From contig NW_024704772.1 in assembly GCF_018977255.1 (NCBI RefSeq), positions 1,054,001 through 1,118,000 on the forward strand: a DNA stretch of 64,000 nt. The letters are read 5' to 3'. The translations under genes were made by a program, and so were the position numbers. This document shows, piece after piece, positions 1-50,949 of this stretch (position 1 is its first letter; each line of letters starts with the position of its first letter). The notes below the pieces were generated by a model, which ran no database searches, was not told where the DNA came from, and saw nothing but the letters and a program-made list of their open reading frames with translations. Origin of the DNA: Callorhinchus milii. Lineage: Eukaryota.

Positions 1-58
1 TGGAAGAACATTCAGTACGATGGAGTTAGTCCTCACTGCCCATTTCCCCTTGTTGCAG

Positions 59-8628
<8,570 letters not shown>

Positions 8629-15518: not shown

Positions 15519-18225
15519 TTAATAGATGGGTCGGGTCTGCGGTCTGGGGATGGTGAAGTCACCCGGGGTACCCTGAAATACACAAGGAAAGGACAAACGG
15601 GTTAATACAATACAATTTACCTTCGTACAACACAACAACGAATGACATTTTACACAGCGCCTTTCACCTCGAGAGGACGTCCCAAAGCCCTGGACAGTCA
15701 GCGATTTGTACCCGAGCTGGGGGTTGGGATCAGGAGGGGTGCAGGGAGGGTGGGGGTAGGAGGGTGATCAAAGGCACGGTCGAAGAGGAGAGTCTTGAGA
15801 CGGGCCTTGAAGGAGGCAAAGGGAGAGAGGGAGGGGGTGAGGCGGAGGGACTGAGGGATGGAGTTCCAAAGGGCAAAAATCAAACAAAAATACAGTACGT
15901 GGGAAAAAAACCTGTAGTGCCTTTCAAGTCAGGTGGACGTCCCAAAGCATTTAGTGAGAGAGCGAGACTGGCAACAAATCATTGTATTCCCCCATGTGTC
16001 CCCCCCACCCCCCAAATCAATTGCTCATTCAACCTTCTTTCATTCAAAGAATTTGCGCTTGATGTCGTGGGCTGTTTTAGGAGAGCCTTTCTGTGTAGTG
16101 TACATTGAGAGTCCTTATCGCTCAGTTCTCACTCACCGGGATGGTGTTGCTGTACATTGCGTTTGGAATCTGGAAACTGGGGTTGGTCCCGTTGGCTGCG
16201 GGCAATGGGGAGGGAGAGAGAGAAAAAAATACATTAACAAATATACAAATGGAGTCCCGTAGCGTAGTGGTAAGTGCGCTCGCCTCGCAAGCAAGAGGAC
16301 ACGAGTTTGATTCCTGGGCGAGGAGTAAGGGAACCTTAGGCAAGTTTCCTTACTCCTCACACATGTCTCTGTTTACCTAACAGCAAGTAAAGAACCTGGT
16401 TGTTAAGTCTGTTGGCGGATCCCTTTCCGGGGGTAATAAAAAAAACAATGAAGTCAAAGACTTTCACAGATGGAAAGGATGAAGGTCAAGGCGAGACACC
16501 GCTGTGCGCAATTGTGTTGCTGCATTTCGCCAACAAAAAATACAATGACGTGATAAGGCTCTATATCAAATGCAAGGATTATTATTATTATGAAGGTAAC
16601 ATTAGTGAATGACTGAGTTTACCAGTCTCTGAGGTTTCGAGGAGGGAGGTTTCATTGCAAACCTGGCTCCAGGCAATTTCCCACCCGTCAGGTCCCGTCA
16701 GGTGGAGCATTGAAGATCATGAGTCACCACTTTACAGCAAAACCCTGTGAAGTGCTTGAAGGCAATTGCGGTTGTGTTTGGTTCCTTTCGCTGTTTTTTT
16801 TGAACATTGCTGTGCGAAATTGGCTGCCGTGTTTCGCCCACAAAGTACACAGTCGCTCCACTTTACAGGGTATCCTGTGAAGCGCTTTGAGACGTCTCGA
16901 TGTGATAAGGCGTTATATCATACGCAAGGATTATTATTATGAAGGTTTGGAGTCGGGAGGACGTCTCAAAGCGCTTCGCAGCATTTCCCTGTACAGTGTG
17001 GTGGCTCATGGTCTTCGGTTGTGATCTAGAAGAGGGGAGGGAGGGCGCGAGGTGGAAGGATTGAGGGAGAGAGTTCCAAAGCGTAGGAGCGTAGTGACTG
17101 AAAGCATGGCCGCTGATGGTGGAGTGGCGGGAGGCGACAAGGAACAAGCAGGTGGTCGGAGCCAGTTGAGCAATGGGGAGGGTGAGAGAGGTCAGAAAGG
17201 TAGGGGGGTGAGAGGGCGTGAAGGAGATTTGTAGTCGAGTGAGATCTTGAAATGGAAGTGCATTCACCTTGGTTGGATTGCTCCATGATGAACATCTGGT
17301 TGTCTACTCCTTTCGGCTGCTTGCCTTTAGGTCCCTGTTCCTCTGGCCCTTCGTCAGGCTTGGCCGGGCAGGTGAGGTGTCGTAGTTCAGGGCAGACGTA
17401 GAAGAAGATGAAGACCCAGCCATTGGCGACCAGGGCAATGCTCAAGGTCGGGTCGTCCCATACTGGTCTTTTGTTTAGCAGGTCGATCCCCCGCACGAAC
17501 ATGACAATCCACACCACCCAGATGCAGATGGAGAGGAGCAGGGTGACGAAAATGTATGCCCCGTGCTTCTTCCACTTGCTGTAGCGTCCGCAGAAGCCAC
17601 AGATGGAAAGGATGAAGGTCAAGGCCATAAGGAACATTACGTAGATCAGCAGCATGACAAAGACGTCGGGGCTGTACTGGCAAGGCTGGCTGTTTCGCTC
17701 TATGGTCAAAACCAGCCATATAATCGCAATGATGACTTGAACCAGGGTCAACCCTACCACCAAGCCAAGCAAACACCACACAGAGAGACCCGATTTGCCA
17801 CGCACCAGCCTCAACACCCTAAAGGCGTGGGCCAGCAGGCAGGAGAAGCACAGGGCGAACAACACCCCCCAGAGGAAGATCCTGGTGGGACACGTCCTGT
17901 GGTCCAGCTTGATGATGAAGGCGAAGGTCAAGCTAAAGATTCCCAAGGTGCCGATGAGGAAGATGAACTGGATGGGGAGGGTGGACCTCTTCCTGGGATT
18001 GGAGACGTGGGGGATCAGGAACAGGAACAGTACCATCAGGGCGATGGTCACCACAATCCCTGCAGCTGCCACGGCCTCCAACACAATCCCCCACACGGCG
18101 TCCAGGTCACACAGGTTGGTGTAAAGTGAGGGCACGTTGGAGCCACAGCCCAGACTCGAGACCAAGTCACACAGAGACAACAGGAGGAGAAAGCCCAGTG
18201 ATGGGATTACCCTCAGCCTCATCAT
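15519..18225 (-). CDS. GPRC5-family (RAIG-type class C orphan) GPCR, 356 aa; probable GPRC5A/D-locus orthologue
   Basis: Coding exons 18225-17268, 16195-16137 (59 nt) and 15572-15519 ([17 protein letters not shown]), with phases 1 and 0 consistent. Family motifs GC...[32 protein letters not shown] and [17 protein letters not shown]; seven hydrophobic helices plus a signal peptide. Confidence 0.93.
16251..16590 (+). mobile_element. tRNA-derived SINE, internally rearranged, in a GPRC5 intron
   Basis: Head GGAGTCCCGTAGCGTAGTGG and tail ATCAAATGCAAGGATTATTATTAT; contains a 28-nt foreign insert at 16465-16492. Confidence 0.8.
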
Positions 18226-26782: not shown

Positions 26783-29239
26783 AGAAAAACGGGAGCCGCG
26801 GACACCCACATCGCGTTGGCTCAGAACCTTGCGGAAGAAACAGTTAGTTATTTGCGAACTATCTCACCCACACTGTCCTCGTAACCAATGCAGCAAATCT
26901 TCCTCCCCCCTCCCCTCCACTGACATGATCTTTGTCAGAGAGTATCCTGCCGAGGGTACATTGTTTTACTGAGGTATCATGACATCAAGGAACAAGAGGT
27001 GTGAGTGTTGTAATACCAATAAAAAAAAATCCGATGAGAAATGAGATTGTTATTGACTGCACATGCGATCCCGATTATTTGCAACAGGAAAGCAATTGAG
27101 AAAGAATTATTCTATTATACTGTTAATAATAGTGAGCCTCGCATTTGATAGAGCCCCTCACCACATTGTTGAGACGTGCAAGCGATATCAATGGCAAGCT
27201 GTGCGGTTTTAGCTGGTTAGACTCCCGCAGTTACCCCAACGCACCATCTGGGCTCCCACCAAGCCTTGGCTCTGGCCAACCCGCGCCTAAAACTCTCCGG
27301 AATTAGGTAAGCAGGGTGCGTCCCTCCGGGGAGCGAGAGAGAGAGAGTGCGCATCCCATCCCAACAATCTATCTCTGGAATTTCCGTGTGTAGGTTGAGC
27401 AGGTGGAATTCTCGGCTTGGGTTTGGATACGCCCAAACACGGCGATGGGTTTCCGTGTGTGTCAGACACCCGCCTGACAACAACAAGGTATAATCCCACT
27501 TTGCGTCTTTTTTCTTTTGGCTCTCAAAAAATAAACACCCGGCGTACAAAACTTCCATATATAAAAACAATCATCAAGAGTTACCAGACGGGCAGCAGGC
27601 AGGGAGCTCCGGCCATATTAATGTCAATAATGATCGTGGTTGCAGTTGGTATAAAGCGCCTTATATGTCGTTGCGCTTCACTGTAAAGTGGGGGGACTGT
27701 AAAGCGTCTTGTCAAGCGCTCTGGGACGCTACACTGGTCAAGGGGCGCGATACAAACGCAAGTTGTTGTTTGTTGTTGTTGACTGTATTTGGGGAGTGGG
27801 GGGTGGGGGGGGGAGTGGCAAAAAGGCTGTGCGGGTTTAACCCTAACTTGCGTGAAGTGCGCTATATGAATGCGAGTTGTTGTTGAATCGCTCTCCTCGG
27901 TGCTGTATATAGCGCTGACGTTCAATGATCTCAGAATCACCGCTATACTTTATTCCAGGAACTATCAGGGTCCTTCGCCTCTTTCTCTATCATCGGTGAT
28001 TGAATATAGGCCCCAGTCAGAGCGATCTCAAGAACTAGTCACAACACTTTACTTATCGTTTGTAAATTTTTATTCAACAAGTGATATTCTACAAGCGGAT
28101 CTTTCCCGACACGGCGCATGCGCATGGAGGCAAAACAAAAAGAACTTTTGCCCAACAAGCAATCTTATACTTTTTAAGAACTGCTCAACAAACGGAGAGC
28201 ACCTGGGAATTACGCCTCTATCAGTTCCCAACACATACCTCAAGTCTCTTTCCCAAATGCCCTGATTCTCTCCTGTTCTCTACCGTTTATCCCTAACTTG
28301 TTCCTTATTCTTGAGGCTGCAAATGCATCATTCTTATCATGACTTCTGTCTTTGTTCCATCCGTTTATCTGTTGTTCATCCCTTGTCAACGTATCTTAAA
28401 CTTGCATGTTAACCACATCCCCTCTTTTATTACTGGAGCTATCTCCCAAACCATTGGTGGATCACTTTTCCGGAGGGAATAATTCCTTCCAAAAAAAATG
28501 TGATAAATTGGTCACTCAACCCACGACTGTTTTTGGGACACTGCTGTGCGCAATTGGCTGCCATGTTTCACCCACCAAATATACAGTATATCCTGTGAAG
28601 CGTTTTGGGACGTCCTCCTGACGTGAAAGGCGCTTTATAAATGGAATCTTGTTGTTGTTGTTGTTTGAGACGTCTGGAAGACGTGATAAGGTGCTGGTAT
28701 TAAATGCAAGGATTATTAATACATCACACGGCCAACCAGTCGCCCGCGGGTCAGAAGTGGTCCACAGGTCCATCAAGAGGTGGTCCCCCAAACCTTTGCA
28801 TAAATGTAGGTAAGTCCGTATTTGATCCATAGTGTATTTTTCTGTTTTTTGTTGAATATTTCCTGATTTATGGCATATTTCAATTGAGAAAATGTCCATA
28901 AAGGATGTCGACCACTGGTCTATATTGCTAAAATCATAACAAATTTATATTTCTTTCTGGCAAAGCTCAGCAATAATATATATTTATACATCTATGTGTG
29001 TATGTTCCTATGATGCATTATTCTTATGCCAACTCACCCATGATTATTCCGTGGGCAGTGCTGGGGATTGGAAAAGCTGAATGGAACAGGACATGGATGT
29101 AGGGTTTAAGGGGCAGTTGGGCGTTGAATAAGATACCGAGTTTCTGCACTGGTTCCAAGAGGTTGAGTGTGCGTCCATGTCGATTGATGCTGTCAGGCCT
29201 GAGGTGAGAAGGCTCTGATGGGAGCCTGAACTTCCATAT

Positions 29240-29720
29240 AACATTAGAACATAAGAATTAGGAGCAGGAGTCGGCCATTCAGCCCTTCGTGCCTGCTCCG
29301 CCATTCAATAAGATCATGGCTGATCTTCTCACCTAACTCTGATCATCTGCCCTATCCCCATATCCCCTAATCCCTCTATTTTTAAAAAATCTATCAGTCT
29401 CAGCCTTGAAGATGTTGAAGGACTGACATCTACAGCCCTTCTGGGGGAGTGGATTCCATAAATTCACTGCCCTCTGAGTGAAGAAATGTTTCCTCAACTC
29501 TGTTCTAAAAGGCTGACCCTTAATTTTCAGACTGTGACCCCCGGTTATAGATTCTCCTACTGGGGAAACAGACCCTCAGTGTCTACTTTATCAGCCCTTT
29601 AAGAATCTTATATGTTTCAATAAGATCCCCCCTAATTCATCTGTACTCTGGAGAATACAGCCCCAGTTTATTCAGACTATCCTCATAGGTCAGTCCCCTC
29701 ATCCCAGGAACTAACCGAGT
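29240..29720 (-). mobile_element. CR1-type LINE 3' fragment within a ~1.7-kb insertion specific to duplicate A
   Basis: Typical CR1 3'-end sequence (AGAACATAAGAATTAGGAGCAGGAGTCGGCCATTCAGCCC on the + strand). The span 28185-29930 is absent from unit B, where the flanks join near 34595. Confidence 0.7.
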
Positions 29721-30003
29721 GAATTACAGCACAGAAACAGGCCATTTGCCCCAATCAATCTATGCCAGTGTTCGTAGCCTACACCCGCCCCCATCCCAAC
29801 CTGAATCTTACTTTAATATTATTGGATTATTTCTTGTAGCTAAAATATTGCGCAAATATGCTTAGAAGAATGGAATGATTTATTAATATTATGATGATGA
29901 TTTCTGTCCTGTAAATGATGCTCATTTCTATTAGGTCCCTTCTTATAACCATTTCTGCTCTTGGCAACAAATTATCATTCCCTCCTTCACTCCGTCCCTT
30001 CTC

Positions 30004-31272
30004 TTAATCGAGGAATAATTCATAGACATAAACCTCCCCGTCGGTCTGGGTCACTATCAGGTTGTCGTCTTCATCGACTGTTATGGCGCGAGGCTTTTTT
30101 ATCCCATCCTTAGCAGCCAGCATTTCCCGTTTGAATATCCCCGTGGGAGAGAATGAGATGATGCAGCCTGGCTCGCTTACGTAGATATTGTCGTATTTGT
30201 CAACGCAAACGCCAAAAGGATTCAGGCATCGAGGCACCCCTTGCATCAAGATCTCGTCACAAACCCTTAAGACATCCCCACTCCTCGTAAAGATAACCAG
30301 GCATTTCTTGCCGACGTCAGACACGATGAAATTCTCTTGGCTGCTCACCGCGACGAAGAGAAAGCGGTTACCTTGATACCCTCGTGGCTTCACTCGGTCA
30401 ATGGCTTGACCATCGAGGTTGTAGAGAGACAGCGAACACAACGTCCCCTCGCTGACCACCAAATACTCGTCTTTGTAAGCGGTGATGGGGTAACTGGGTT
30501 CCGAACCTTTGAGCAAAAGCTGTTTCACGAGATCACCGTTGAGTTCTACGATATAAAGCTGGCCATCCGCAGAGTAAGCGATCTGGTCACCGCACACCGT
30601 GACGCTGCACGGATCCTTGTCTGTGTCGGCCACTGAGAACCACATCCGGAAAGACCCATCAATCGAGTAACTCTTCAGAGTGCCGTTGGCTTCATCCACC
30701 AAAATGATGTCTCCCTTCCTCAGCATGCTGACGCCGGTCAGCTTAGGAGTATAGGAGTCTCGATGGAGCTCAGTGTTGAAACTGCAGCGAAGAGTTGGTC
30801 GTTGCCAAACCTTTGTCACAAGCTTGAGAGCATCACAGCTGGTGGCAGAGAGCATCAGCACCCTGTGGTGGTGCTGTGAGAGAGTTGAGAGGTGCTTATT
30901 TGTGCAGAGCTGACACATGAAACTGGGGCAGTCAAGGCACTCGGTGACCGCGGGTCTATCGTGCCGCCATTTTGGTGGGCAAACGTTACACATCTTGTCA
31001 ATCTTCTCATTGAGTTGCAAAGCGTTGAGAAGGTCGTTGATGTAGAAGTTTGTCCTCAGGTTGCTGATGCCTCCTTTACTCAGGATGACTTCCTCTCTGC
31101 ATTCCGGGCACTGAAAGACTTTGGTTTTGTGTGGCACCAGCTTCCTCAGACACTCCTCACAGTAAGTGTGGAGGCACGGCAGGGCCTTGGGGTTATAGTA
31201 TTTCTCAAAGCAGAGTTTGCAATTGAGAAAATCTTTCTTAATGATCTCTGCAAAGGAGGAGGATGTTGCCAT
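30004..31272 (-). CDS. TRIM56-like paralogue A, 422 aa: RING, B-box1 and NHL repeats; lacks B-box2 and coiled coil
   Basis: Uninterrupted ORF from ATG 31272 (GCCATGG Kozak, just downstream of a TTGCAG acceptor). C3HC4 RING DFLNCKLC..LPCLHTYCEEC..CPEC, LRTNFYINDLL, intact B-box1 and NHL-like repeats (LNPFGVCVD, KPRAITVDEDDNLIVT). Confidence 0.88.
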   Translation of the reverse strand: MATSSSFAEIIKKDFLNCKLCFEKYYNPKALPCLHTYCEECLRKLVPHKTKVFQCPECREEVILSKGGISNLRTNFYINDLLNALQLNEKIDKMCNVCPPKWRHDRPAVTECLDCPSFMCQLCTNKHLSTLSQHHHRVLMLSATSCDALKLVTKVWQRPTLRCSFNTELHRDSYTPKLTGVSMLRKGDIILVDEANGTLKSYSIDGSFRMWFSVADTDKDPCSVTVCGDQIAYSADGQLYIVELNGDLVKQLLLKGSEPSYPITAYKDEYLVVSEGTLCSLSLYNLDGQAIDRVKPRGYQGNRFLFVAVSSQENFIVSDVGKKCLVIFTRSGDVLRVCDEILMQGVPRCLNPFGVCVDKYDNIYVSEPGCIISFSPTGIFKREMLAAKDGIKKPRAITVDEDDNLIVTQTDGEVYVYELFLD

Positions 31273-31904
31273 GGCAATGGGATGCTGAGACAATCTGCAA
31301 TGACACACAGCATCGGGTTAATGCATTACTTTGCTTGCTCACTCTCTTGCTCAGTCACTGCCGTCCAGAGCAAAGGAAGATGGCCTAAAATAAGTACCCA
31401 CACATAGATTCACAATTTTTCCAGGTTAATAATGTGATTTAAATGAAATATAGTGACAATTTGAATTAACGGGAGTAAAGACAGCCTATGGCTCAGTGGG
31501 AAGCACTCGCGAGTCAGAAGGTTGGAGGTTCCAGCCCCTAAGTTGGGGACTCTGGCGCTATTCGAAAAGAGAAGGTAGTTTCTCAACCCAGGTATCCTGG
31601 CCAACATTCCCCCCCCCCCCCCCCCGCACCCGATAAAATCACTCATTTACCCCAGCCCTGTTTGTGGGAATGTCGCTGCTCAAATTTGGCTGTTGCATTC
31701 GCCTACAAAATACACAGTCACTGCAATTCACAACAGAATCCCTGTGAATAGCTTTGACAGTGTGTAAAGGCACTGTTTCAAATGAAAGGGTTATTGATTG
31801 TCAAGAAGTAAAAAGTGGCATTAACAAACAACAGTGATTTGTTGGCACTGATGTCATATGTGGACGTGTCTGTTATTTGGAAAAGAAACCTAATTTGCAG
31901 AATA

Positions 31905-31916
31905 GAAAGTGAAACT
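31905..31916. promoter_or_regulatory. ISRE (GAAAGTGAAACT) upstream of TRIM56-like A
   Basis: Exact match to the AGTTTCNNTTTC consensus, identical in the duplicate at 38344; a GAAAAGAAA tandem lies about 25 bp away in both copies. Confidence 0.7.
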
Positions 31917-32630
31917 TAAAACGTCTCGAGTGTCCTTCTGTACACTTACGTCAGGATGCGCTTATGGGCTACCCACGGTTGTGCCGGAACGGCTTCTGCT
32001 GGGGTCGGGCGCTACCCGGCCTTTGAGCCGCAATTCAGCTTGTCCCTCAGTATATATCGGGAGGAATCCTGAGGTGACAGCCAGCGACATCTGGCAAAAT
32101 GCCTTGTCGTTGGCTCTGACTAAACATGGCTGGCGATTAAAAAGGCTCTGGACCTCCCGGCTTTCGTGTACGGTCGCGGTCTGGGCCAGTCAGCCCGTTG
32201 CCCTCGGGCCGCTGCAGGGGCCAGGAGACCGTGGACAACCTCTTCTGGGAGTTAACCTTTGTGTACCTGAAAGGTACAAGGTGCAGACTGAAATAGCAGT
32301 GGGAATTTGATCCTTGCCTGGATAAGTAAGCTGACTCCCCAATTTATCATACATGCAACAAACAGTCTTAGCTTCGTTGTGGATCAGGGGCAAATAGGTA
32401 AAGCAGTAATTCCCCCTCCCCGCCCCACCCACCCACCTCAACACTGAAGCTGGAGAGGCGATCTGGAGTTATCAAAATCATACTCACTTTTACAGCAGGA
32501 GCTGATGTTGATCTTCAGACTGCAGGGCGTGAACTGTCAAAACTCCTCTGTTCACAGCGTCTAAGCTCACAAACTGTGCTGCGATTGGGCAGCTCCAGGC
32601 TCCACCTCACTGCCTGTTCGGTTGTCTTGG

Positions 32631-32639
32631 TTCCGGGAA
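32631..32639. promoter_or_regulatory. GAS/STAT element TTCCGGGAA
   Basis: Perfect TTCN3GAA palindrome upstream of TRIM56-like A; the equivalent position in unit B is interrupted by an L2 insertion. Confidence 0.4.
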
Positions 32640-33370
32640 AACTGACATTCAATTATCTCTGAATCACTAATGTTTGACCAATCAATAAAAATCGTTGGCT
32701 TTGACACAACAACAACAAGATCTCATTTATAGAGCGCCTTTCACGTCGGGAGGACGTCCCAAGGCGCTGGACAGTTGGGTTGGCACTCGAGCATTGGGGG
32801 GGAAATGGTCAGGGTGAGGGGAGGGAGCGAGGAGGGGGTAGAGAGTCGAGAGTGCTTTTCATTGCTGGGAGGACATCTCAAAGCGCTTCACAGGATTTTA
32901 CTGTCAAGTGTAGCGACTGTATTTTGTAGGCGAACACTATAAGCTCTGAATGCAAAAGATTACTATTATTAAACATTGATATTCTCATGTTTGACTATTA
33001 TTAAACAATCCGATTACTTAATTCTCCGCAGATCTACAATTCCACTTTCTGTGTTGGTCTATTTTTAAAAAAAGACACCTTTTTATAAAACCTTTCGTGC
33101 GAAAAAAATTTATAAAATAAAAGTTATTGGAAGTTACTTTTCTCTACGAAAAAGATCAGACGGGGACAGAGGCTAATGCAGAGCCTCTGCAGTGAGGATG
33201 GGTTCAATCTACGGGACATTGTGCTCAATTGGCCGCCGCGTTCGCCCACAAATGTACAGTCAATTCAGTTTACAGTATATTCTGCGAAGCGCTTTGGGAC
33301 GTCTGGAAGACGTGAAAAGCGCTACATCAAATGCGAGGATTATTAAGCGAAGGGCGGGGTCGGAGGAAAG

Positions 33371-33469
33371 ACTACAACTCCCAGGATGCCACGCGGGGGC
33401 CGCGCAAGCGCACTCAACTGGTACCGGTGAGGGGGACGGAGGTCACGTGAGGGGGAGGGAGGTCACGTG
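33371..33469 (+). promoter_or_regulatory. Duplicated DDX47 CpG-island promoter: ZNF143/THAP11 motif ACTACAACTCCCAGGATGC and two GTCACGTG E-boxes
   Basis: Motifs read directly; homologous to 40902-40965. Confidence 0.7.
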
Positions 33470-33496
33470 GGGCGGAGGGTGGTCAGCGCGGGCAAT

Positions 33497-33565
33497 ATGG
33501 CGGCGTGTGAGAAGGCGGTTGCAGAAGCTGAAGAGAAACCGGAGCCGGCGACTTTCCGAGAGCTG
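33497..33565 (+). pseudogene. Orphan duplicate of DDX47 exon 1 (MAACEKAVAEAEEKPEPATFREL|gtaata)
   Basis: 69-nt exon nearly identical to 40986-41054, with ATG and donor intact. Similarity to DDX47 intron 1 ends near 33710 and no private downstream exons are visible. Confidence 0.85.
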
Positions 33566-34655
33566 GTAATAGCCCGGGGTGGGGTGGGGGGGGGTGACTG
33601 GAGGCGGCGGCGGGGAGGGAAGAGAAGAGAAGAGCCAGGCCCGGGGTGGGGGGGGGGCGCCGTAACCGTTGTCGTCCGCGGTCTGTTCCAGAAGCTTCTG
33701 TGCTGCACGTGCGCCCCCTCCCCCTCGGCTCCCCTCACACTGAGATGGCGGTCAGTCGGGGAGGAGGGCGTCTCCGGCATTATTAGCGTCAGCACCAATA
33801 ATAATAACCGCAACGATCATCATCGTTGCCGTTGGGATAGAGCGCCTCATCGCGACGTTGCGCTTCGCTGTGAAGTGTGTGGGAGGGGGGGGCGGGGGTG
33901 GGGCTGTAAAGCGTCTCGTCAGGCGCTCTGGGACGCTACCCTGCTCAAGGGGGCGCCATGTAAACGCAAGTTGTTGTTTGTTGTTGACAGTTTGGGGGGT
34001 GGCAGGAAGGCTGTGCTGGTTTGGCCGGTCAACCTCCCCACCGTAAAGCGCTCCGGGACGCGACCTTGCGTGAAGGGCGCTGTATAAATGCAAGTTGTTG
34101 TTCTCTTCCCCCCTTCCTCCCCACCCCCCAACATACACACACACACACACATACACACACCCACCCACTGGGGTCTTTTCTTCCACCCACGTATTCCCCA
34201 ACCGGCGGAGTTTGGTTTCGTCTGCGAGCAAAGCAGAGGATGCAGTTTGCATCAGCGCTTTGGGACGTCCTCCTGATGTGAAGTGCAGTTTGTTGTTGTT
34301 TCGCTCTCCTCGGTGCTGCATTTAGCGCTGATGTTCATTGATCTCAGAATCACCGCTGTACTTTATTCTAGGAACTGTCAGGGTCCTTCACTTCTTTTCC
34401 TATCATCGGTGAACATAGGCCCAGTCAGAGCAATCTCAAGAACTAGTCGCAACACTTTATTTATTATCACATATAAACCATTCTATTTTATTCAACAAGT
34501 AATATTCTACAAACAGAACTTTCCGGATAGGGCGCATTGAGAGAAAAACAAAAGAACTGTTGCTCAACAAATAATCTTACACTTTTAAGAACTGCTGTTA
34601 GGTCCCCTCTTAACCATCTCTTCTCTTTAAAGCAAATTGTTACGTAGAATATACC

Positions 34656-36692
34656 TCACCACTCCCAATCATCCTCGCTTGTTCCCTCGTTCGTTTCTGT
34701 TGATAATTCAAAGACATAAACCTCCCCGTCGGTCTGGGTCACTATCAGGTTGTCGTCTTCATCCACTGTTAGAGCGCGTGGCATGTTTATCCCATCAAGC
34801 GAAGCCAGCACTTCTTGCTTGAATATCCCTTCAGGGGAGAATGAGATAATGCAGCCTGGCTCGCCTACGTAGATATCATCATAACTATCAACACACACGC
34901 CGAAAGGATTCAGGGATCGAGGCACCCCTTGCATCCAGATCTCATCGCAAATATTTATGACGTCCTCATTCCTCCTGAAGATAACCAGGCATTTCTTGCC
35001 GATGTCAGACACGATGAAATTCTCTTGACTGCTCACCGCAACGAAGAGAAAGCGGATACCTTGGTACCCTTGTGGCTTCACGCGGTCAACGACTTGACCA
35101 TCGAGGCCGTAGAGAGACAGTGAACACATCGATCCCTCACTAACCACTACGTACTGGTCTTCGTAAGCGGTGATGGGGTAACTGGATTCTGAGCCTCTGA
35201 GCAAAAGCTGTCTCACGCGATCACCGTCGTAATCTAGGAAATAAAGCTTGCTCTCTGCAGTGCAAGCGATCAAGTCACCGCACACTGCAACGCTGCATGG
35301 ATCTTTGCCTGTATCTCCAATAGCGATCTGCCTCCTGAAATCCCCATCGATTGAATAACACTTCAGAATACCGTTGGCTTCGTCTGCCACAATGATGTCC
35401 CCATTGTTCAACATGCTGACGCCGGTCAGCTTCGAATTGCACTCTGCATAGCACTCAGTCGTGAAGTTGCAGCGACGGGCTGGTCTTAGCCAATTGCCTG
35501 CCACGTTTTCATAAGGGGACTGCACTGGAGGCAGCTCCGGACTGGAAAAGCGAGCAAATTCTTGCCAATGCTCCGGAGCTTGATCAGGAACTGGAGGGAT
35601 TTTCTGCATTGCTGCTTCTTGACCAAGTTCAATCCTGAACAGATCCATTTGAGACATGTAATCCTTGGTCACCACCAGCTTGGGGATGTCCTCCTTCATA
35701 CTGGGTGGCTGGTACGCCAGCAGTGTCCTCACTTGCTCTCCGAGAATCTTCTCCAAACAGACTATGCTGCCGTTCTGGCCAGCCCTCAAGACTCTCTCTG
35801 AGTAATCTCTGGTGCTCTCTGCACTCTTCGTCTGTCTCTGCAGGTCTGCCTTGGCCGTCTCATACAGTGCTTCCTGTTGCTTGACAAAATCGGACATTTT
35901 CTTCCTGATGTCGTCCCTCTGCTTAAAAAGGGCACTCTGCACCTGTGCCACTGCGTCCACCATTTTGGACTCTATGGACCTTTCTGCAGCCTTCAGCTTT
36001 TCCAGCGCCGCATTCAGGTCGTCTTGGCTTCTGGTCAAAGACTGGACCTTGGTGCTGAGTTTCCCGACGAGCTCCCTCACAGCTGGTGTGCTGGACTCTG
36101 CGGCTTTGGACATCGACAGCGCTTCGTGGCGGGAATGAGAATTGACGAGGCAAGTGTCACATATCGAGGCATTGCACGGTCTGCAGAAATAGCCGCCTTC
36201 CTTCTTCGGGTGGGCAGCGCAGTAAATCTTCTTCCTCACGTGGATCTCAGCGTCACAGCTGGTGTCAGAGAGCCTCAACACCTTGTGTTGGTGTTGTGAG
36301 GGAATCGAGAGGTGATCGTCTGTGCAGAGCTGACACATGAAACTGGGGCAGTCAAAGCACTGGGTGACCGCGGGTCTATCGTGCTGCCCTTTTGATGGGC
36401 AAACGCTACACATCTTGCCAATAGTCTCATTGAGTGGCAAAATATTGAGAAGGCTGTTGATGAAGAAGTTTGTCTTCAGGTTGCTGATGCCTCCTTCATT
36501 CAGGGTGACTTCCTGTCTGCATTCTGGGCACTGAAAGACTTTGGTTTTGTGTGGCACCAGCTTCCTCAGACACTCCTCACAGTAAGTGTGGTGACACGGC
36601 AGGTACTTGGGGTTACGGTATTTCTCTAAGCAGATATTGCAATTGAGAAAATCATTCTCGATGATCTCTGCAAAGGAGGAGCATGTCGCCAT
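34656..36692 (-). CDS. TRIM56-like E3 ubiquitin ligase, paralogue B, 678 aa: RING, B-box1, B-box2, coiled coil and NHL repeats
   Basis: Single coding exon from ATG 36692. DFLNCNICLEKY..LPCHHTYCEEC..CPEC and LKTNFFINSLL resemble TRIM56; B-box2 CAAHPKKEGGYFCRPCNASICDTCLVNSHSRH; heptad coiled coil; NHL repeats; acidic tail. Confidence 0.9.
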   Translation of the reverse strand: MATCSSFAEIIENDFLNCNICLEKYRNPKYLPCHHTYCEECLRKLVPHKTKVFQCPECRQEVTLNEGGISNLKTNFFINSLLNILPLNETIGKMCSVCPSKGQHDRPAVTQCFDCPSFMCQLCTDDHLSIPSQHQHKVLRLSDTSCDAEIHVRKKIYCAAHPKKEGGYFCRPCNASICDTCLVNSHSRHEALSMSKAAESSTPAVRELVGKLSTKVQSLTRSQDDLNAALEKLKAAERSIESKMVDAVAQVQSALFKQRDDIRKKMSDFVKQQEALYETAKADLQRQTKSAESTRDYSERVLRAGQNGSIVCLEKILGEQVRTLLAYQPPSMKEDIPKLVVTKDYMSQMDLFRIELGQEAAMQKIPPVPDQAPEHWQEFARFSSPELPPVQSPYENVAGNWLRPARRCNFTTECYAECNSKLTGVSMLNNGDIIVADEANGILKCYSIDGDFRRQIAIGDTGKDPCSVAVCGDLIACTAESKLYFLDYDGDRVRQLLLRGSESSYPITAYEDQYVVVSEGSMCSLSLYGLDGQVVDRVKPQGYQGIRFLFVAVSSQENFIVSDIGKKCLVIFRRNEDVINICDEIWMQGVPRSLNPFGVCVDSYDDIYVGEPGCIISFSPEGIFKQEVLASLDGINMPRALTVDEDDNLIVTQTDGEVYVFELSTETNEGTSEDDWEW

Positions 36693-37191
36693 GGCAATGG
36701 GACGCTGAGACAATCTGCAATGACACACAGCATCATGTTAATGCATTACTTTGCTCACTCACTGTCCAGAGCAAAGGAATATGGCCTAAAATAGGTATAT
36801 TGATAGCATCATTAACAGTACTTCTGGCAAGCCTTTATGCTGCTTATCCAGCTTGGACCAGTTAGGTCTTTGGCTTGTGGGGTTAACAGGAGTGAGTGGG
36901 AGAATTCCCTCCCTGCCCCCAGTGACCTGGGAAGAAAGACGATACCCCTTAAAGGCAAAGGCTCCAACAAAAGTATGCTCTGTTCTCCAGAGCAGTAATT
37001 CTACCTTTCAATGCAATTCCTGCTATATCAAAGTTATACAAAGTAAATTTTTCCTGTATATGCGAGCTTGATTTTCTTAGGGTCACGAACCACACATAGA
37101 CTCACAATTTTTCCAGGTTAACAATTTGATTTAAATGAAATATAATGACAATTTGAATCAACGGGTGTAAAAACAGCCTAGGGCTCAGTGA

Positions 37192-38164
37192 TGTTGGAAA
37201 AAATGATCGAAGACTCGACAAATACCAAACATGGCGCGACACACCTTTGAATGCTTTATTTCGATACCCAACAGGTAATATCAATCATACAATACAAAGA
37301 AAAGTAAATGATCCAATATGCAGTACTGGAATACAATGATTATGTCAAAGTATAATGATTATACTTGACTATTTATATTAAAAACGCATTGGTTACATGC
37401 AGTTAAGAAATACTCATACTACCAGTTTAAAGGAGTCAGTAGCTTCAGGTCTTCGTCTTCCCTCTCTTGAGCCCGAGCAGCTTAGTGATTATACTCACAA
37501 ACTAACGGTGTCCCTTTGATCTCTGCTCCCGGACTGACTATCTCCCTCTTGAGTCATCTTGCTCTTCTAACTGTTCTCACCTAGAGGTGGGCTAGTTATA
37601 CCCTTTCTCCAAGTGTTCTTTTCCTAGGGCCCCTCTACCCACTTCTGATACTGTCGCTTACTCAGGTTAATCAACCATTTGGCTTGGTGCCTGACTGAGT
37701 CTCCACAAGGTCTTCCCTTTGTCCTGTCTAAGCCAAGAGATTGATCAGTTTAGGGCTGTATCTGGTGCTTGTTATTTTGTTATGTGGGATCGTTAGTACA
37801 TTCCTTTTAAGTGAATGGTTATTTCTTATCAGTATCCTGGGATGGTACCAAAATCCTCCAGTTTAAACAACTTGCTCGTTGTTGCTATTCTTGAGGGTTG
37901 CCTTCTGTTTCTTGGCAGGCCCAGTCAGAATCTAGAGACTTATTACTAAGCTGAGATTCTGTGTCGACCGGAACCTTGGACTCTGTGGCTTGTTGTTATC
38001 TACTGATAAGTGGTGACCTCCTGCCCTTTTCCAAGGCTGTCTTGTTATTCCTTACGAAAAAGAGAAAACCAGATGTGTCCTATCCCATGACCGTCAGTAC
38101 TTTCTCCCTTCTACATTTGTTTAATGTTTCATTATTATTAGACTACAACTTCTATAATCAAACA
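37192..38164 (-). mobile_element. Solo LTR (973 bp) with 4-bp TSD GTGA
   Basis: Termini TGTTGG...AAACA, TSD at 37188-37191 and 38165-38168. The empty site CTCAGTGGGAAGCACTCGCG is seen in unit A near 31492. Orientation inferred from a minus-strand AATAAA at 37260-37255. Confidence 0.8.
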
Positions 38165-38343
38165 GTGAGAAGCACTCGCGAGTCAAAAGGTTGTAGTTTC
38201 CAGACCCCAAGTTGGGGACGGTGGCGCTATCCGAAAAGAGAAGGGAGTTTCTTAGCCAAGTATCCTGGCTAAAAAAACAACAGTGACTTGTTGGCACTGA
38301 CGTCATATCTGTTATTTGGAAAAGAAAGCTCAATTGTGGAATA

Positions 38344-38355
38344 GAAAGTGAAACT
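38344..38355. promoter_or_regulatory. ISRE (GAAAGTGAAACT) upstream of TRIM56-like B
   Basis: Exact ISRE consensus, identical to 31905-31916. Confidence 0.7.
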
Positions 38356-38914
38356 TAAAAAGATATTTGGTCGGAGGATTCTTCCGGTTTTTTTGATTGA
38401 AACAAGACTCGGAAGCGTTCACAATTAATCATTTGCCAACAAAATACACAGTCCCTACACTTTACAGGAATACTATTTGATGGACGTTTCATGAAATATC
38501 ATTGCTGTTTGTGGGAATGTCGCTGTGTGAAAAATGGCTGGTATTTGATGTGTTGGTACATCAAAGCACCGCTAAGGTGCAGACTGAAATAGCAGCGGGA
38601 ATTTGATCCTTGCCTGGATAAGTAAGCTGAGTCCCCAATTTATCATACATGCAACAAACAGTCTTAGCTTCGTTGTGGATCAGGGGCAAATAGGTAAAGC
38701 AGTAAATCCCCCTCCCCGACCCACCCACCCACCTCAACACCTGAAGCCGGAGAGGTGATCTGGAGTTTTTCAAATCATACTCACTTTTAAGGCAGGAGTT
38801 AATGTTGATCTTCAGACTGCAGACTATCAAAACTCCTCTGTTCACAGCGTCTAAACTCACAAAGTGTGCTGCAATTGGGCAACTCCAGGTTCCACCTACC
38901 TGCCTTTTCTGTTG

Positions 38915-40430
38915 TCATGATTGACTCCTGTCAGCGCCCCCGCACTGACAGCATCACCATTGAAGGATCCACCCTCCACCTCATCAAGCTAGTCTGGAAC
39001 CTTGGCGTCTTGTTTGACTCTCAACTGTCCTTTTTACCCCACGTATCCATGTTATGACCCACTTTGCTTTACCCCACCTCCGCAACATCGCCCGGCTCCG
39101 CCACTGTCTCACACCGCAGGCTACCGAGACCCTCATACAAGCATTCATGACATCCAGGCTCGATCACGCAAACTCCCTGTGTAAGGTTTTGTTAAATTCA
39201 TGACCCTGCAGTGAAGTAAGGAATGACACCAATGTTCTACAATTAATCAAGGTTCATTAATTCAGATTAATAATGGTTATAAGTAATTAAAAGAATATAT
39301 CACAATAATGCTTACGTATCCACCTACAGTTCACAACAATATAGTTGATGAAACCAAATGCTGCGGAAGAGATAGAGGAGCAATGTCCAATTTAATGTCC
39401 ATTTTAATGTGGCCTTTTTAATGTCCATCAAAAGGTATCCCAGTATTGTACAGTTCCCAGTTTGATCACTCCAAAATATCTAATTATTATTGTGCGTTTC
39501 CCAGTTCGATCAACTGTTTCTTCTGATTCTCTTTTCGAATCGATCTCTGTTTATCCAGTTGGGTAGGTGACCTTTCACCTGTTGTCTTTTGCAAGATGGT
39601 TCCTTTGCAAAAAAAACTGCAACACAATTCTCTCCCATGTTAAAACAGCTGCAGACTATTTTTCCATGGGAAAATGATTGATAAGGAATAAAAACAGTTT
39701 GTTGTTTATAATCAGTCTTTTGTTTCTCAACCTTGAGAAAGAATCTTCTGCGAACCTAGTCACAACCGGCTCCCATCGTATCTTATAAGACTGATTATAA
39801 GTCTCAAAAATATAAACATTGCAAATATAATTTGAGATATTATTTAATACATTAACTACAGAATCCTACACCTGATTGTCAGCCTTCCCAACTCCTCCCT
39901 CCATAGGTTGGAGATCATCCAGAACTCTGCAGCCCGTGTCCTCTCTCGCACCAGGCTCTGCGACTCTATCAACCCCATCCTTGCCCGACTCCACTGGCTT
40001 CCCATCACACAGAGGATACAGTTCAATATCCTGATCCTTTCAAAGCCCTCCATGGCTTTGCTCCCCCCTCGGGTCTGTGACCTCCTAACCCCCTATCAAG
40101 CTGCCCGCTTCCTCCGCTCAGCAGGTTTCCGGCCTCCTTCACGTCTCCCGCCTCACTTGCCCCACCATTGGCGGGCGGGCCTTCAGTCACTCTGCCCCCA
40201 CCCTCTGGAACTCCATCCCGCAGTCCCTCTACCTCGCCCCCTCACTTGCCTCCTTCAAGACCCATCTCAAGACCCTCCTTCGACCATGCCTTCGGTCACC
40301 CTCCTTCCTCTCCTGCCCTCCACCCTTCCCGATCCAGACCCCAGCTCGGGTTCGAAACACTGGTTCTCAACGCCTCAGGACGTCCTACTGACATGAAAGG
40401 TGCTATACAAATGTAATTTTGTTGTTGTTG
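38915..40430 (+). mobile_element. 5'-truncated L2 LINE (C-terminal part of ORF2 plus 3' tail), split by a solo LTR
   Basis: Degenerate ORF2 peptides NLGVLFDSQLSF and IIQNSAARVLSRT..INPILARLHWLPITQRIQFNIL; tail TGAAAGGTGCTATACAAATG followed by TTG repeats; absent from unit A. Confidence 0.85.
39180..39870. mobile_element. Solo LTR (691 bp) nested in the L2, 4-bp TSD CCTG
   Basis: Termini TGTAAGG...CCTACA, flanked by CCTG at 39176-39179 and 39871-39874; L2 sequence resumes across the junction. Confidence 0.82.
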
Positions 40431-40901
40431 TCTAGGTTAAGGATCAGTATCTCTCTCTAGCACTGACAGTTACTCTGAGTCACTGCTGTACTTTAAGAAC
40501 TTATGTTGGACGATCAATAAAAATCATTGGCTTTGATACAGCACCTTTCATTGCTGGGGGGATGTCTCAAAGCGCTTCGTAAGATTTTACTGTCAAGTGT
40601 AGCGACTATTTTGTAGGTGAACATTATAAGCTCTGGAAAGGCGCTGTACAAATCTAAGTTGTTGTTATTGGATCAAATATGGAAGGATTATTAAACAATC
40701 TTTTGCATATTTATTTTTTATGAAATAATCAGATACTTAATTCCCTGCATATCTACAATTCCGCTTTCTAAAAAAAAGTTTTTTTCTTTGCTTTCGAAAG
40801 TTGTTATAAAACCTATCGTACGAAAAAAAATAAAACGAAAAAGCTTCCGAAAGTTACTTTTCTCTGTGTGAGCTCCTACAATGCTGGGGTGGGGGTGAAA
40901 A

Positions 40902-40965
40902 ACTACAACTCCCAGGATGCCCCGGGGACCCGCGCAAGCGCAGTGCCAGCGAGGCAGGTCACGTG
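40902..40965 (+). promoter_or_regulatory. DDX47 promoter: ZNF143/THAP11 motif and GTCACGTG E-box in a CpG island
   Basis: ACTACAACTCCCAGGATGC at 40902-40920 and GGTCACGTGG just upstream of ATG 40986. Confidence 0.72.
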
Positions 40966-40985
40966 GCGGGGACGGAACCGGCAAC

Positions 40986-50949
<9,964 letters not shown>

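Follow-up and report, generated by a model that had tools for sequence, protein, structure and literature searches.

The window analysed here, 64,000 nucleotides (nt) of the elephant shark Callorhinchus milii (RefSeq assembly GCF_018977255.1, contig NW_024704772.1, positions 1,054,001 to 1,118,000), contains two neighbouring TRIM56-like genes, A and B. B encodes a full-length TRIM protein, and A encodes a shorter protein that lacks the middle part of it. We tentatively propose, at somewhat less than even confidence, that A is a spliced tandem duplicate of TRIM56 with its NHL domain under purifying selection, and that it would act as an effector free of the TRIM scaffold, B keeping signal amplification. 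Whatever its role, A is very probably a functional gene.

Domain organization of A and B

An earlier sequence-only reading of the stretch had named two open reading frames of 422 and 678 amino acids (aa), and both are present. Each gene lies in one unit of a tandem duplication, together with the promoter and first exon of a DEAD-box helicase that we take to be DDX47-like.

30004..31272, minus strand: gene A, one coding exon, 422 aa, with RING, B-box1, short junction and NHL propeller (open reading frame list, BLASTP, Pfam, predicted structure; exact protein in NCBI/UniRef)
34656..36692, minus strand: gene B, single coding exon, 678 aa, full TRIM with RING, B-box1, B-box2, coiled coil, linker, NHL and a derived acidic tail (open reading frame list, Pfam, alignment, genome search)
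about 27630..33641, no strand assigned: duplication unit 1, holding A and a copy of the promoter and first exon of the DDX47-like gene (sequence self-comparison)
about 33816..41133, no strand assigned: duplication unit 2, holding B and the promoter and first exon of the DDX47-like gene (sequence self-comparison)
31099..31221, minus strand: RING core of A, C18-C58, all zinc ligands kept, Arg59 next (Pfam, ligand listing)
30865..30990, minus strand: B-box1 of A, C95-H136, eight ligands kept (weak Pfam match, alignment, ligand listing)
30808..30828, minus strand: 21-nt junction island of A, LKLVTKV, in place of 756 nt of B, predicted disordered (alignment, model)
35493..36248, minus strand: 756-nt segment of B without full counterpart in A, B-box2, coiled coil and linker (alignment)

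A and B differ by 12-18% at the DNA level and share identical stretches of 52-66 nt. The proteins are 74% identical overall and align by BLASTP as two blocks, one of 154 aa at 75% identity and one of 268 aa at 71%. Both have Pfam matches to RING and NHL, that of the A RING lying above the cut-off; zf-B_box (B-box2) is matched in B only (residues 154-193) and not in A. B-box1 is a sub-threshold ANCHR-like match in both. In B, the RING, B-boxes and coiled coil stand in TRIM order by Pfam and alignment, the coiled coil being assigned from the alignment to TRIM56 homologues and weak helical-domain Pfam matches at 196-299. The eight RING and eight B-box1 Cys/His ligands, as well as Arg59, are identical between A and B, in agreement with the earlier claim that A keeps its zinc ligands. 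A genome search with the NHL domain matched only A and B (two matches, five candidates scored), and a search with the B-box2/coiled-coil segment matched B and one distant sequence at 17%, with no other copy.

Where B has 756 nt, A has just 21 nt between codon 148 and Trp156, so that 735 nt net are missing with the frame preserved. The coiled-coil segment is absent from A in the alignment, and the predicted model of A has no helix between residues 130 and 160. Because A lacks B-box2 and the coiled coil, its sequence classes it as TRIM-like rather than as a canonical TRIM. The lost segments start with GA and end with TC or GC; without intron ends they are not introns, which the sequence-only reading had already argued, and the intron explanation is ruled out. 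The same reading had counted two deletions of 564 and 168 nt (732 nt in all). The in-frame loss stands; the size does not, as the net loss is 735 nt and a further 3-nt gap within the island is needed. Placement of the island at B 35664-35684 gives P=0.17 by local alignment, P=0.008-0.019 with the whole island aligned and P=0.012 in frame, and its best match at the protein level lies elsewhere in B, at KLSTKV (residues 211-216, P=0.008). Two separate deletions are the likely origin of A on this alignment; a single deletion with a diverged or filled junction is possible.

Transcripts of A and the deletion junction

We compared contigs from seven sequencing runs. Single contigs bridge the junction of A in five of them (X1, X2, X4, X5 and X6, from two studies), with more than 100 nt on each side and three or four letters differing from the window; for X9 and X10, the pieces listed stop short of it. 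The deletion is therefore no assembly error, a check that had been set for it beforehand. Among the differences listed across the seven runs, none introduces a stop or a gap into the coding sequence of A, in line with the earlier description of its frame as free of stops and frameshifts.

31295..31949, minus strand: GT-AG intron of 655 nt in the 5' untranslated region (UTR) of A (joint 31294/31950 in X5 and X6)
31950..32267, minus strand: 5' untranslated exon of A, of dispersed-repeat origin, no counterpart upstream of B (splice joint, alignment, genome repeat search)
32488..32517, minus strand: 3' end of a second, alternative 5' exon for A, 30 nt of it covered (loose contig end in X6)
28069..28074, minus strand: candidate polyadenylation signal of A, a weak hint, giving a 3' UTR of about 1.9 kb (contig ends in X4 and X5)

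A is a spliced, expressed gene. The GT-AG joint is spliced in two of four runs (X5 and X6), and the DNA-like run X2 reads through the acceptor unspliced. No run is recorded as RNA, and the RNA nature of the data is taken from the splice joint. The untranslated exon lies in a dispersed-repeat insertion specific to A (31925-32275), which has 53 genome matches, at 68-83% identity apart from itself; short peptides of its plus strand recall what we take to be the end of a Tx1/L1-type ORF2 of a long interspersed nuclear element. The donor of the alternative 5' exon, which ends at 32488, is also conserved upstream of B. At the 3' end, contigs of X4 and X5 (one study) end at 28056-28057, and X1 continues past.

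The public model P0002 ('TRIM56 isoform X2/X3') consists of B plus the last six residues of A, joined within a 52-nt identical stretch (30024-30075 and 34712-34763). It is likely an annotation artefact; read-through splicing from B to A is possible.

Selection on A and B

The ratio of nonsynonymous to synonymous substitution rates (dN/dS) between A and B is 0.46-0.64 over 407 codons. For the NHL domain it is 0.36-0.52 (five estimates; bootstrap confidence interval (CI) 0.27-0.59). A pairwise ratio is blind to which copy is constrained, and the changes were therefore polarised with 11 elasmobranch proteins. Of 107 differences, 24 are assigned to A and 29 to B (p=0.58), the rest being left unassigned. 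A departs from B at 10 of 115 conserved columns versus 97 of 296 other columns. The estimated dN/dS of the NHL branch of A is 0.29-0.42 with an upper bound of 0.60, presuming equal synonymous rates and using outgroups as proteins only. Under neutrality, the frame of A would have stayed free of stops with a probability of 0.007-0.04, and free of both stops and frameshifts with a probability of at most about 1e-3. Four of the five variants listed in A among the runs are silent and one changes Thr to Ser (P 0.01-0.02), the counts covering the differences listed (at least five) from contigs that drop rare variants; this excess hints at constraint after the deletion. The proposal that A is degenerating faster than B was rejected on the derived changes, and the tree branches agree.

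TRIM56 ancestry and the tandem duplication

Both A and B have identical counterparts among public proteins. The proteins that cluster with these bear the species name Callorhinchus milii and, for B, the name TRIM56, all homologue names being the automatic names of the sources. A snake TRIM56 (P0025) searched against the genome matches B at E 6.9e-89, A at 5.8e-30 and 1.6e-28, and the next locus at 2.1e-14 (61 matches). By this best match of a tetrapod TRIM56, the sequences place A and B in the TRIM56 lineage. The RING alone scores 85.5 bits with TRIM2 versus 82.3 bits with human TRIM56. The layout of A and B fits TRIM56: a single coding exon, an NHL-like C-terminus and no filamin domain. TRIM56 is described as single-exon in PMC3160408.

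The 12 elasmobranch and 11 tetrapod homologues are all full length (630-737 aa). In a tree of 17 proteins, which left out P0012, seven lizard proteins, mollusc-type matches and two elephant-shark public models and held no mammalian TRIM56, malin or other TRIM-NHL paralogue, A and B pair as sisters with 100/100 support, their end branches being 0.15 and 0.21 on a stem of 0.38. The tree thus dates the duplication within the chimaera lineage and not recently.

B is more than an unaltered parent of A: the ancestral stop position and the SYxPKLTG motif survive in A, and the tail of B is derived. The new acidic tail of B ends DDWEW. The distance from the coding end to the next shared block is about 0.1 kb in B (34656-34703) versus about 1.8 kb in A (28185-30015), and the original 3' end of B has probably been lost.

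Leaving aside the public model of A itself and two distant RING-NHL proteins, none of 30 matches (232-739 aa) has the architecture of A, and none of 141 shorter candidates has it. No other holocephalan sequence turned up in the homologue searches, which is no evidence of absence. The two distant proteins (P0029 and P0030; 415-422 aa, 26-27% identity, one named from the clam Mactra) have neither B-box nor coiled coil and may represent a further malin-like architecture of independent origin. In the skate Amblyraja there are two TRIM56-like proteins of full length (P0013 and P0014), 89% identical and sisters in the tree, which by their sequences represent an independent duplication without domain loss.

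Predicted structure of A

A was modelled with AlphaFold2 from 17 sequences (mean predicted local distance difference test (pLDDT) 82.7, predicted template modelling score 0.62). In the model, the RING carries both flanking helices (residues 7-15 and 76-92) and is followed by B-box1; A may still self-associate through these helices. The junction (residues 143-155) is of low confidence.

30019..30795, minus strand: NHL beta-propeller of A, residues 160-418, predicted complete (model, fold comparison)

The deletion ends four residues ahead of the first NHL strand. Ten-residue blocks from 161 to 420 have pLDDT values mostly of 87-94, the lowest being 73. The strand pattern of the model fits six blades closed by the first strand, and the best fold matches are the NHL domains of TRIM2 and TRIM3. 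The predicted propeller is consistent with the earlier statement that A keeps the whole NHL region.

An interferon-response motif beside both genes

31905..31916, plus strand: core of an interferon-stimulated response element (ISRE)/interferon regulatory factor site, GAAAGTGAAACT, in the first intron of A, 633 nt upstream of the ATG (motif count, alignment)
38344..38355, plus strand: the same core upstream of B (motif count, alignment)

GAAANNGAAACT occurs twice in the 64 kb, once upstream of each gene, with 0.22 occurrences expected and two found in 1 of 100 shuffles. The core sits in a 22-nt block identical between A and B and matches 13 of 14 positions of the consensus given in PMC11486635. 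The motif suggests that A is likely interferon-inducible. TRIM56 is reported to be induced 2-5-fold on exposure to virus, double-stranded RNA or interferon (PMC13236048). The ISRE core, the spliced transcript and the purifying selection on the NHL domain together support the description of A as 'maintained' in the sequence-only reading.

Possible roles of A

For A itself, we observe the duplication, the deletion, splicing, an open frame, the retained ligands, constraint on NHL and the ISRE core. In the proposed mechanism, A is a tandem duplicate of elephant-shark TRIM56 from which B-box2, coiled coil and linker have been removed in frame. It would bind targets through its predicted intact NHL propeller and ubiquitinate them through its RING. 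Judging from mammalian TRIM56 mutants, it would no longer assemble coiled-coil dimers or tetramers, would keep target binding and direct virus restriction, and would no longer amplify TLR3-TRIF signalling; full-length B would retain the signal-amplifying role. Human TRIM56 without its coiled coil keeps TRIF binding and loses its boost of TLR3 signalling (PMC11067339). According to a review (PMC13236048), deletion of the coiled coil makes little difference to the antiviral effects that TRIM56 exerts directly, RING and NHL being the main requirements. An effector role is favoured for A because direct restriction is reportedly left almost intact by such a deletion.

Several points weigh against this reading. 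The first concerns the reach of the selection evidence. In the first 148 codons dN/dS is about 1 (0.95-1.38; CI 0.51-2.53), so that the comparison of A with B for which the sequence-only reading had asked supports it for NHL and fails to do so for the N-terminal part. The ratio is due to a low dS, which is 0.12 in the N-terminal part versus 0.38 in NHL (Fisher p=3e-4), dN being similar (p=0.36). A 66-nt run identical between A and B (P=0.005) and 5' flanks diverged by just 5-14% indicate that gene conversion between the two genes in the N-terminal part is likely. Given this and the ratio of about 1, the constraint demonstrated on the sequences stops at NHL and does not extend to the RING half. 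The dN/dS of the A branch has a ceiling of 0.73-1.03 if every change is assigned to A, and the assumptions of the branch estimate and the scope of the variant counts given above bear in the same direction. A225T, C233Y and R255K in A hit otherwise invariant columns, and part of the measured constraint may predate the deletion.

The remaining points concern expression and function. The splice evidence (X5 and X6) comes from a single study. In P0001, an older public model of A, the frame shifts by one base within a run of adenines at residue 393; as four of four runs span the site without a gap, this is probably an older sequencing error, a rare allele being possible. The ISRE core misses the first base of the 14-nt consensus, and the two cores are one duplicated element that was picked by eye before testing. 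The linker is missing from A as well, and its human counterpart (355-433) is required against flaviviruses (PMC13236048). A mouse TRIM56 coiled-coil tetramer mutant has no E3 activity in vitro (PMC10165346), and by analogy the RING of A could be silent. The isolated mouse RING is a dimer (PMC10165346) and the model of A retains both RING-flanking helices, which leaves the monomer of the sequence-only reading a conjecture; PMC7752041 leaves the function of a monomeric TRIM56 RING open. Finally, function is carried over from mammals to a fish protein about 33% identical to the snake protein.

The main rival, unlikely but to be taken seriously, is that A is a decoy or feedback brake whose NHL binds the targets of B (TRIF, the cGAS or STING pathway, or viral RNA) without scaffolding or ubiquitination, so that B is dampened; A and B might in addition pair via their RING helices. 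It is plausible because human coiled-coil-less TRIM56 binds TRIF without boosting signalling, and it also fits the inactive tetramer mutant, the ISRE core common to both genes and a constraint that is clearest on NHL. Against it, A keeps all RING ligands and Arg59, though gene conversion from B could maintain them. At 73 aligned positions the two NHL domains are different, which makes identical targets less likely, and the word 'dominant' is absent from PMC11067339. The partnership with B put forward in the sequence-only reading would have to do without the coiled coil, the part through which TRIMs pair.

A distinctly less probable alternative is that A is a malin-like ligase with its own, possibly non-immune, substrates, activated by a partner or by self-dimerisation of its RING. 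Malin, a ligase with RING and NHL but neither B-box nor coiled coil, arose from a TRIM-NHL gene (PMC3160408, PMC3503706), NHLRC1-like clusters are found among the look-alikes of A at a score of 0.90 (a lead only), and A has its own repeat-derived 5' exon. However, the protein change in A is not accelerated relative to B, and A keeps the ISRE core and B-box1.

Slightly more doubtful still, A could have been full-length and functional for long, have lost its middle recently and now be a transcribed gene in early decay. The deletion carries no date, the N-terminal ratio is about 1, A has a few changes at otherwise invariant columns, public models of A include the frameshifted P0001 and a truncated P0032, and no relative with its architecture was found among the 30 matches and 141 shorter candidates. 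On the other side, four of the five listed variants, all on haplotypes that bear the deletion, are silent, the differences listed in the seven runs include neither a stop nor a gap, and the junction island has itself diverged from B. Moreover, of 433 positions at which a deletion of 245 aa could lie, just 24 leave RING, B-box1 and NHL untouched, a count biased by the gene having been noticed as intact.

Although tandem paralogues with identical stretches of 52-66 nt are hard to assemble and the public models at the locus are tangled (P0002), an assembly error is next to impossible, given the bridging contigs from two studies and the 12-18% DNA divergence of A from B.

Neighbouring genes

The helicase first exon is duplicated (33497-33565 and 40986-41054, both plus strand), with ATG, open frame and GT donor all kept in the copy. 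It could act as an alternative first exon, which would put B antisense within a helicase intron. On the plus strand, a contig of X6 passes through a part of the RING-coding sequence that A and B share without difference and then enters helicase exon 2 at a GT donor; the joint leads from 31161 or 36581 (plus strand) to 42585, the starting copy (A or B) being ambiguous. This contig is an antisense transcript overlapping a TRIM gene.

On the opposite flank lie CNOT3-type exons (20-8188; Not3 and NOT2_3_5_C Pfam matches) and a 7tm_3 receptor open reading frame (17026-18225), presumably GPRC5-like. Among 26 chosen frames from the remainder of the window, a Pfam scan picked up CNOT3-type domains in two and no other domain. 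In the rest of the genome, clusters of many RING/TRIM-like matches, some with stops (G000:C30 at about 136000-465000 and C21 at about 4.4-5.1 Mb), suggest TRIM gene arrays.

Comparison with known systems

TRIM-like genes that arose by duplication and partial loss of the RING/B-box/coiled-coil (RBCC) module are known (malin, RNF207, FSDs and BSPRY; PMC3503706). No published report of such a gene from TRIM56, or of the A/B pair, was found in a literature search that was thin on subscription papers. The earlier suggestion that the pair is undescribed thus holds for A and B themselves; the general kind is known from malin and TRIM52. A is known from one species, its function being read from mammalian mutants.

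A and B resemble TRIM56 in RING, B-box1, NHL-like propeller and single coding exon, B in the full RBCC-linker-NHL layout, and their ISRE core fits the reported interferon induction of TRIM56. A differs in the absence of B-box2, coiled coil and linker; in humans, the short TRIM56 isoforms known are missing the C-terminal half instead (PMC11768893).

Malin (NHLRC1/EPM2B) is, like A, a single-exon protein of about 400 aa with RING and NHL propeller and no coiled coil, born by duplication of a TRIM-NHL gene and partial RBCC loss (PMC3503706, PMC3160408). Its nearest relative is TRIM32, it has no B-box and depends on laforin, and it occurs widely among vertebrates, whereas A derives from TRIM56, keeps B-box1, adjoins its sister gene and is found in one lineage. 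A as an orthologue of malin was considered and rejected: it keeps B-box1, is sister to B at 100/100, is 74% identical to it and lies inside the tandem duplication. The malin-type route, in which a TRIM-NHL gene is duplicated and its middle dropped, would here have been taken independently, with the sister gene still adjacent.

TRIM52 is likewise a coiled-coil-less TRIM formed by partial duplication beside its parent, TRIM41, and a candidate antiviral gene (PMC3845644). It keeps RING and B-box2 and has also lost the C-terminal target-binding domain, whereas A keeps that domain and has lost the middle.

A further counterpart is the engineered coiled-coil deletion of human TRIM56, in which, as in A, RING and NHL are present and the coiled coil is absent; the mutant keeps B-box2 and the disordered linker, whereas A is natural and lacks both. 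By analogy, the best reading of A is a natural version of this laboratory protein. A bolder extension, which we regard as unlikely, is that the jobs of TRIM56 have been split: the co-induced B would amplify interferon signalling as a scaffold, and A would restrict viruses and compete for the partners of B, an effector/brake pair in which the origin of malin is replayed. The literature is divided on the TRIM56 coiled coil, which is needed for in vitro E3 activity and TLR3 signalling and reportedly dispensable for direct restriction. As an evolved and expressed coiled-coil deletion beside its full-length sister, A makes this question testable on a natural pair.

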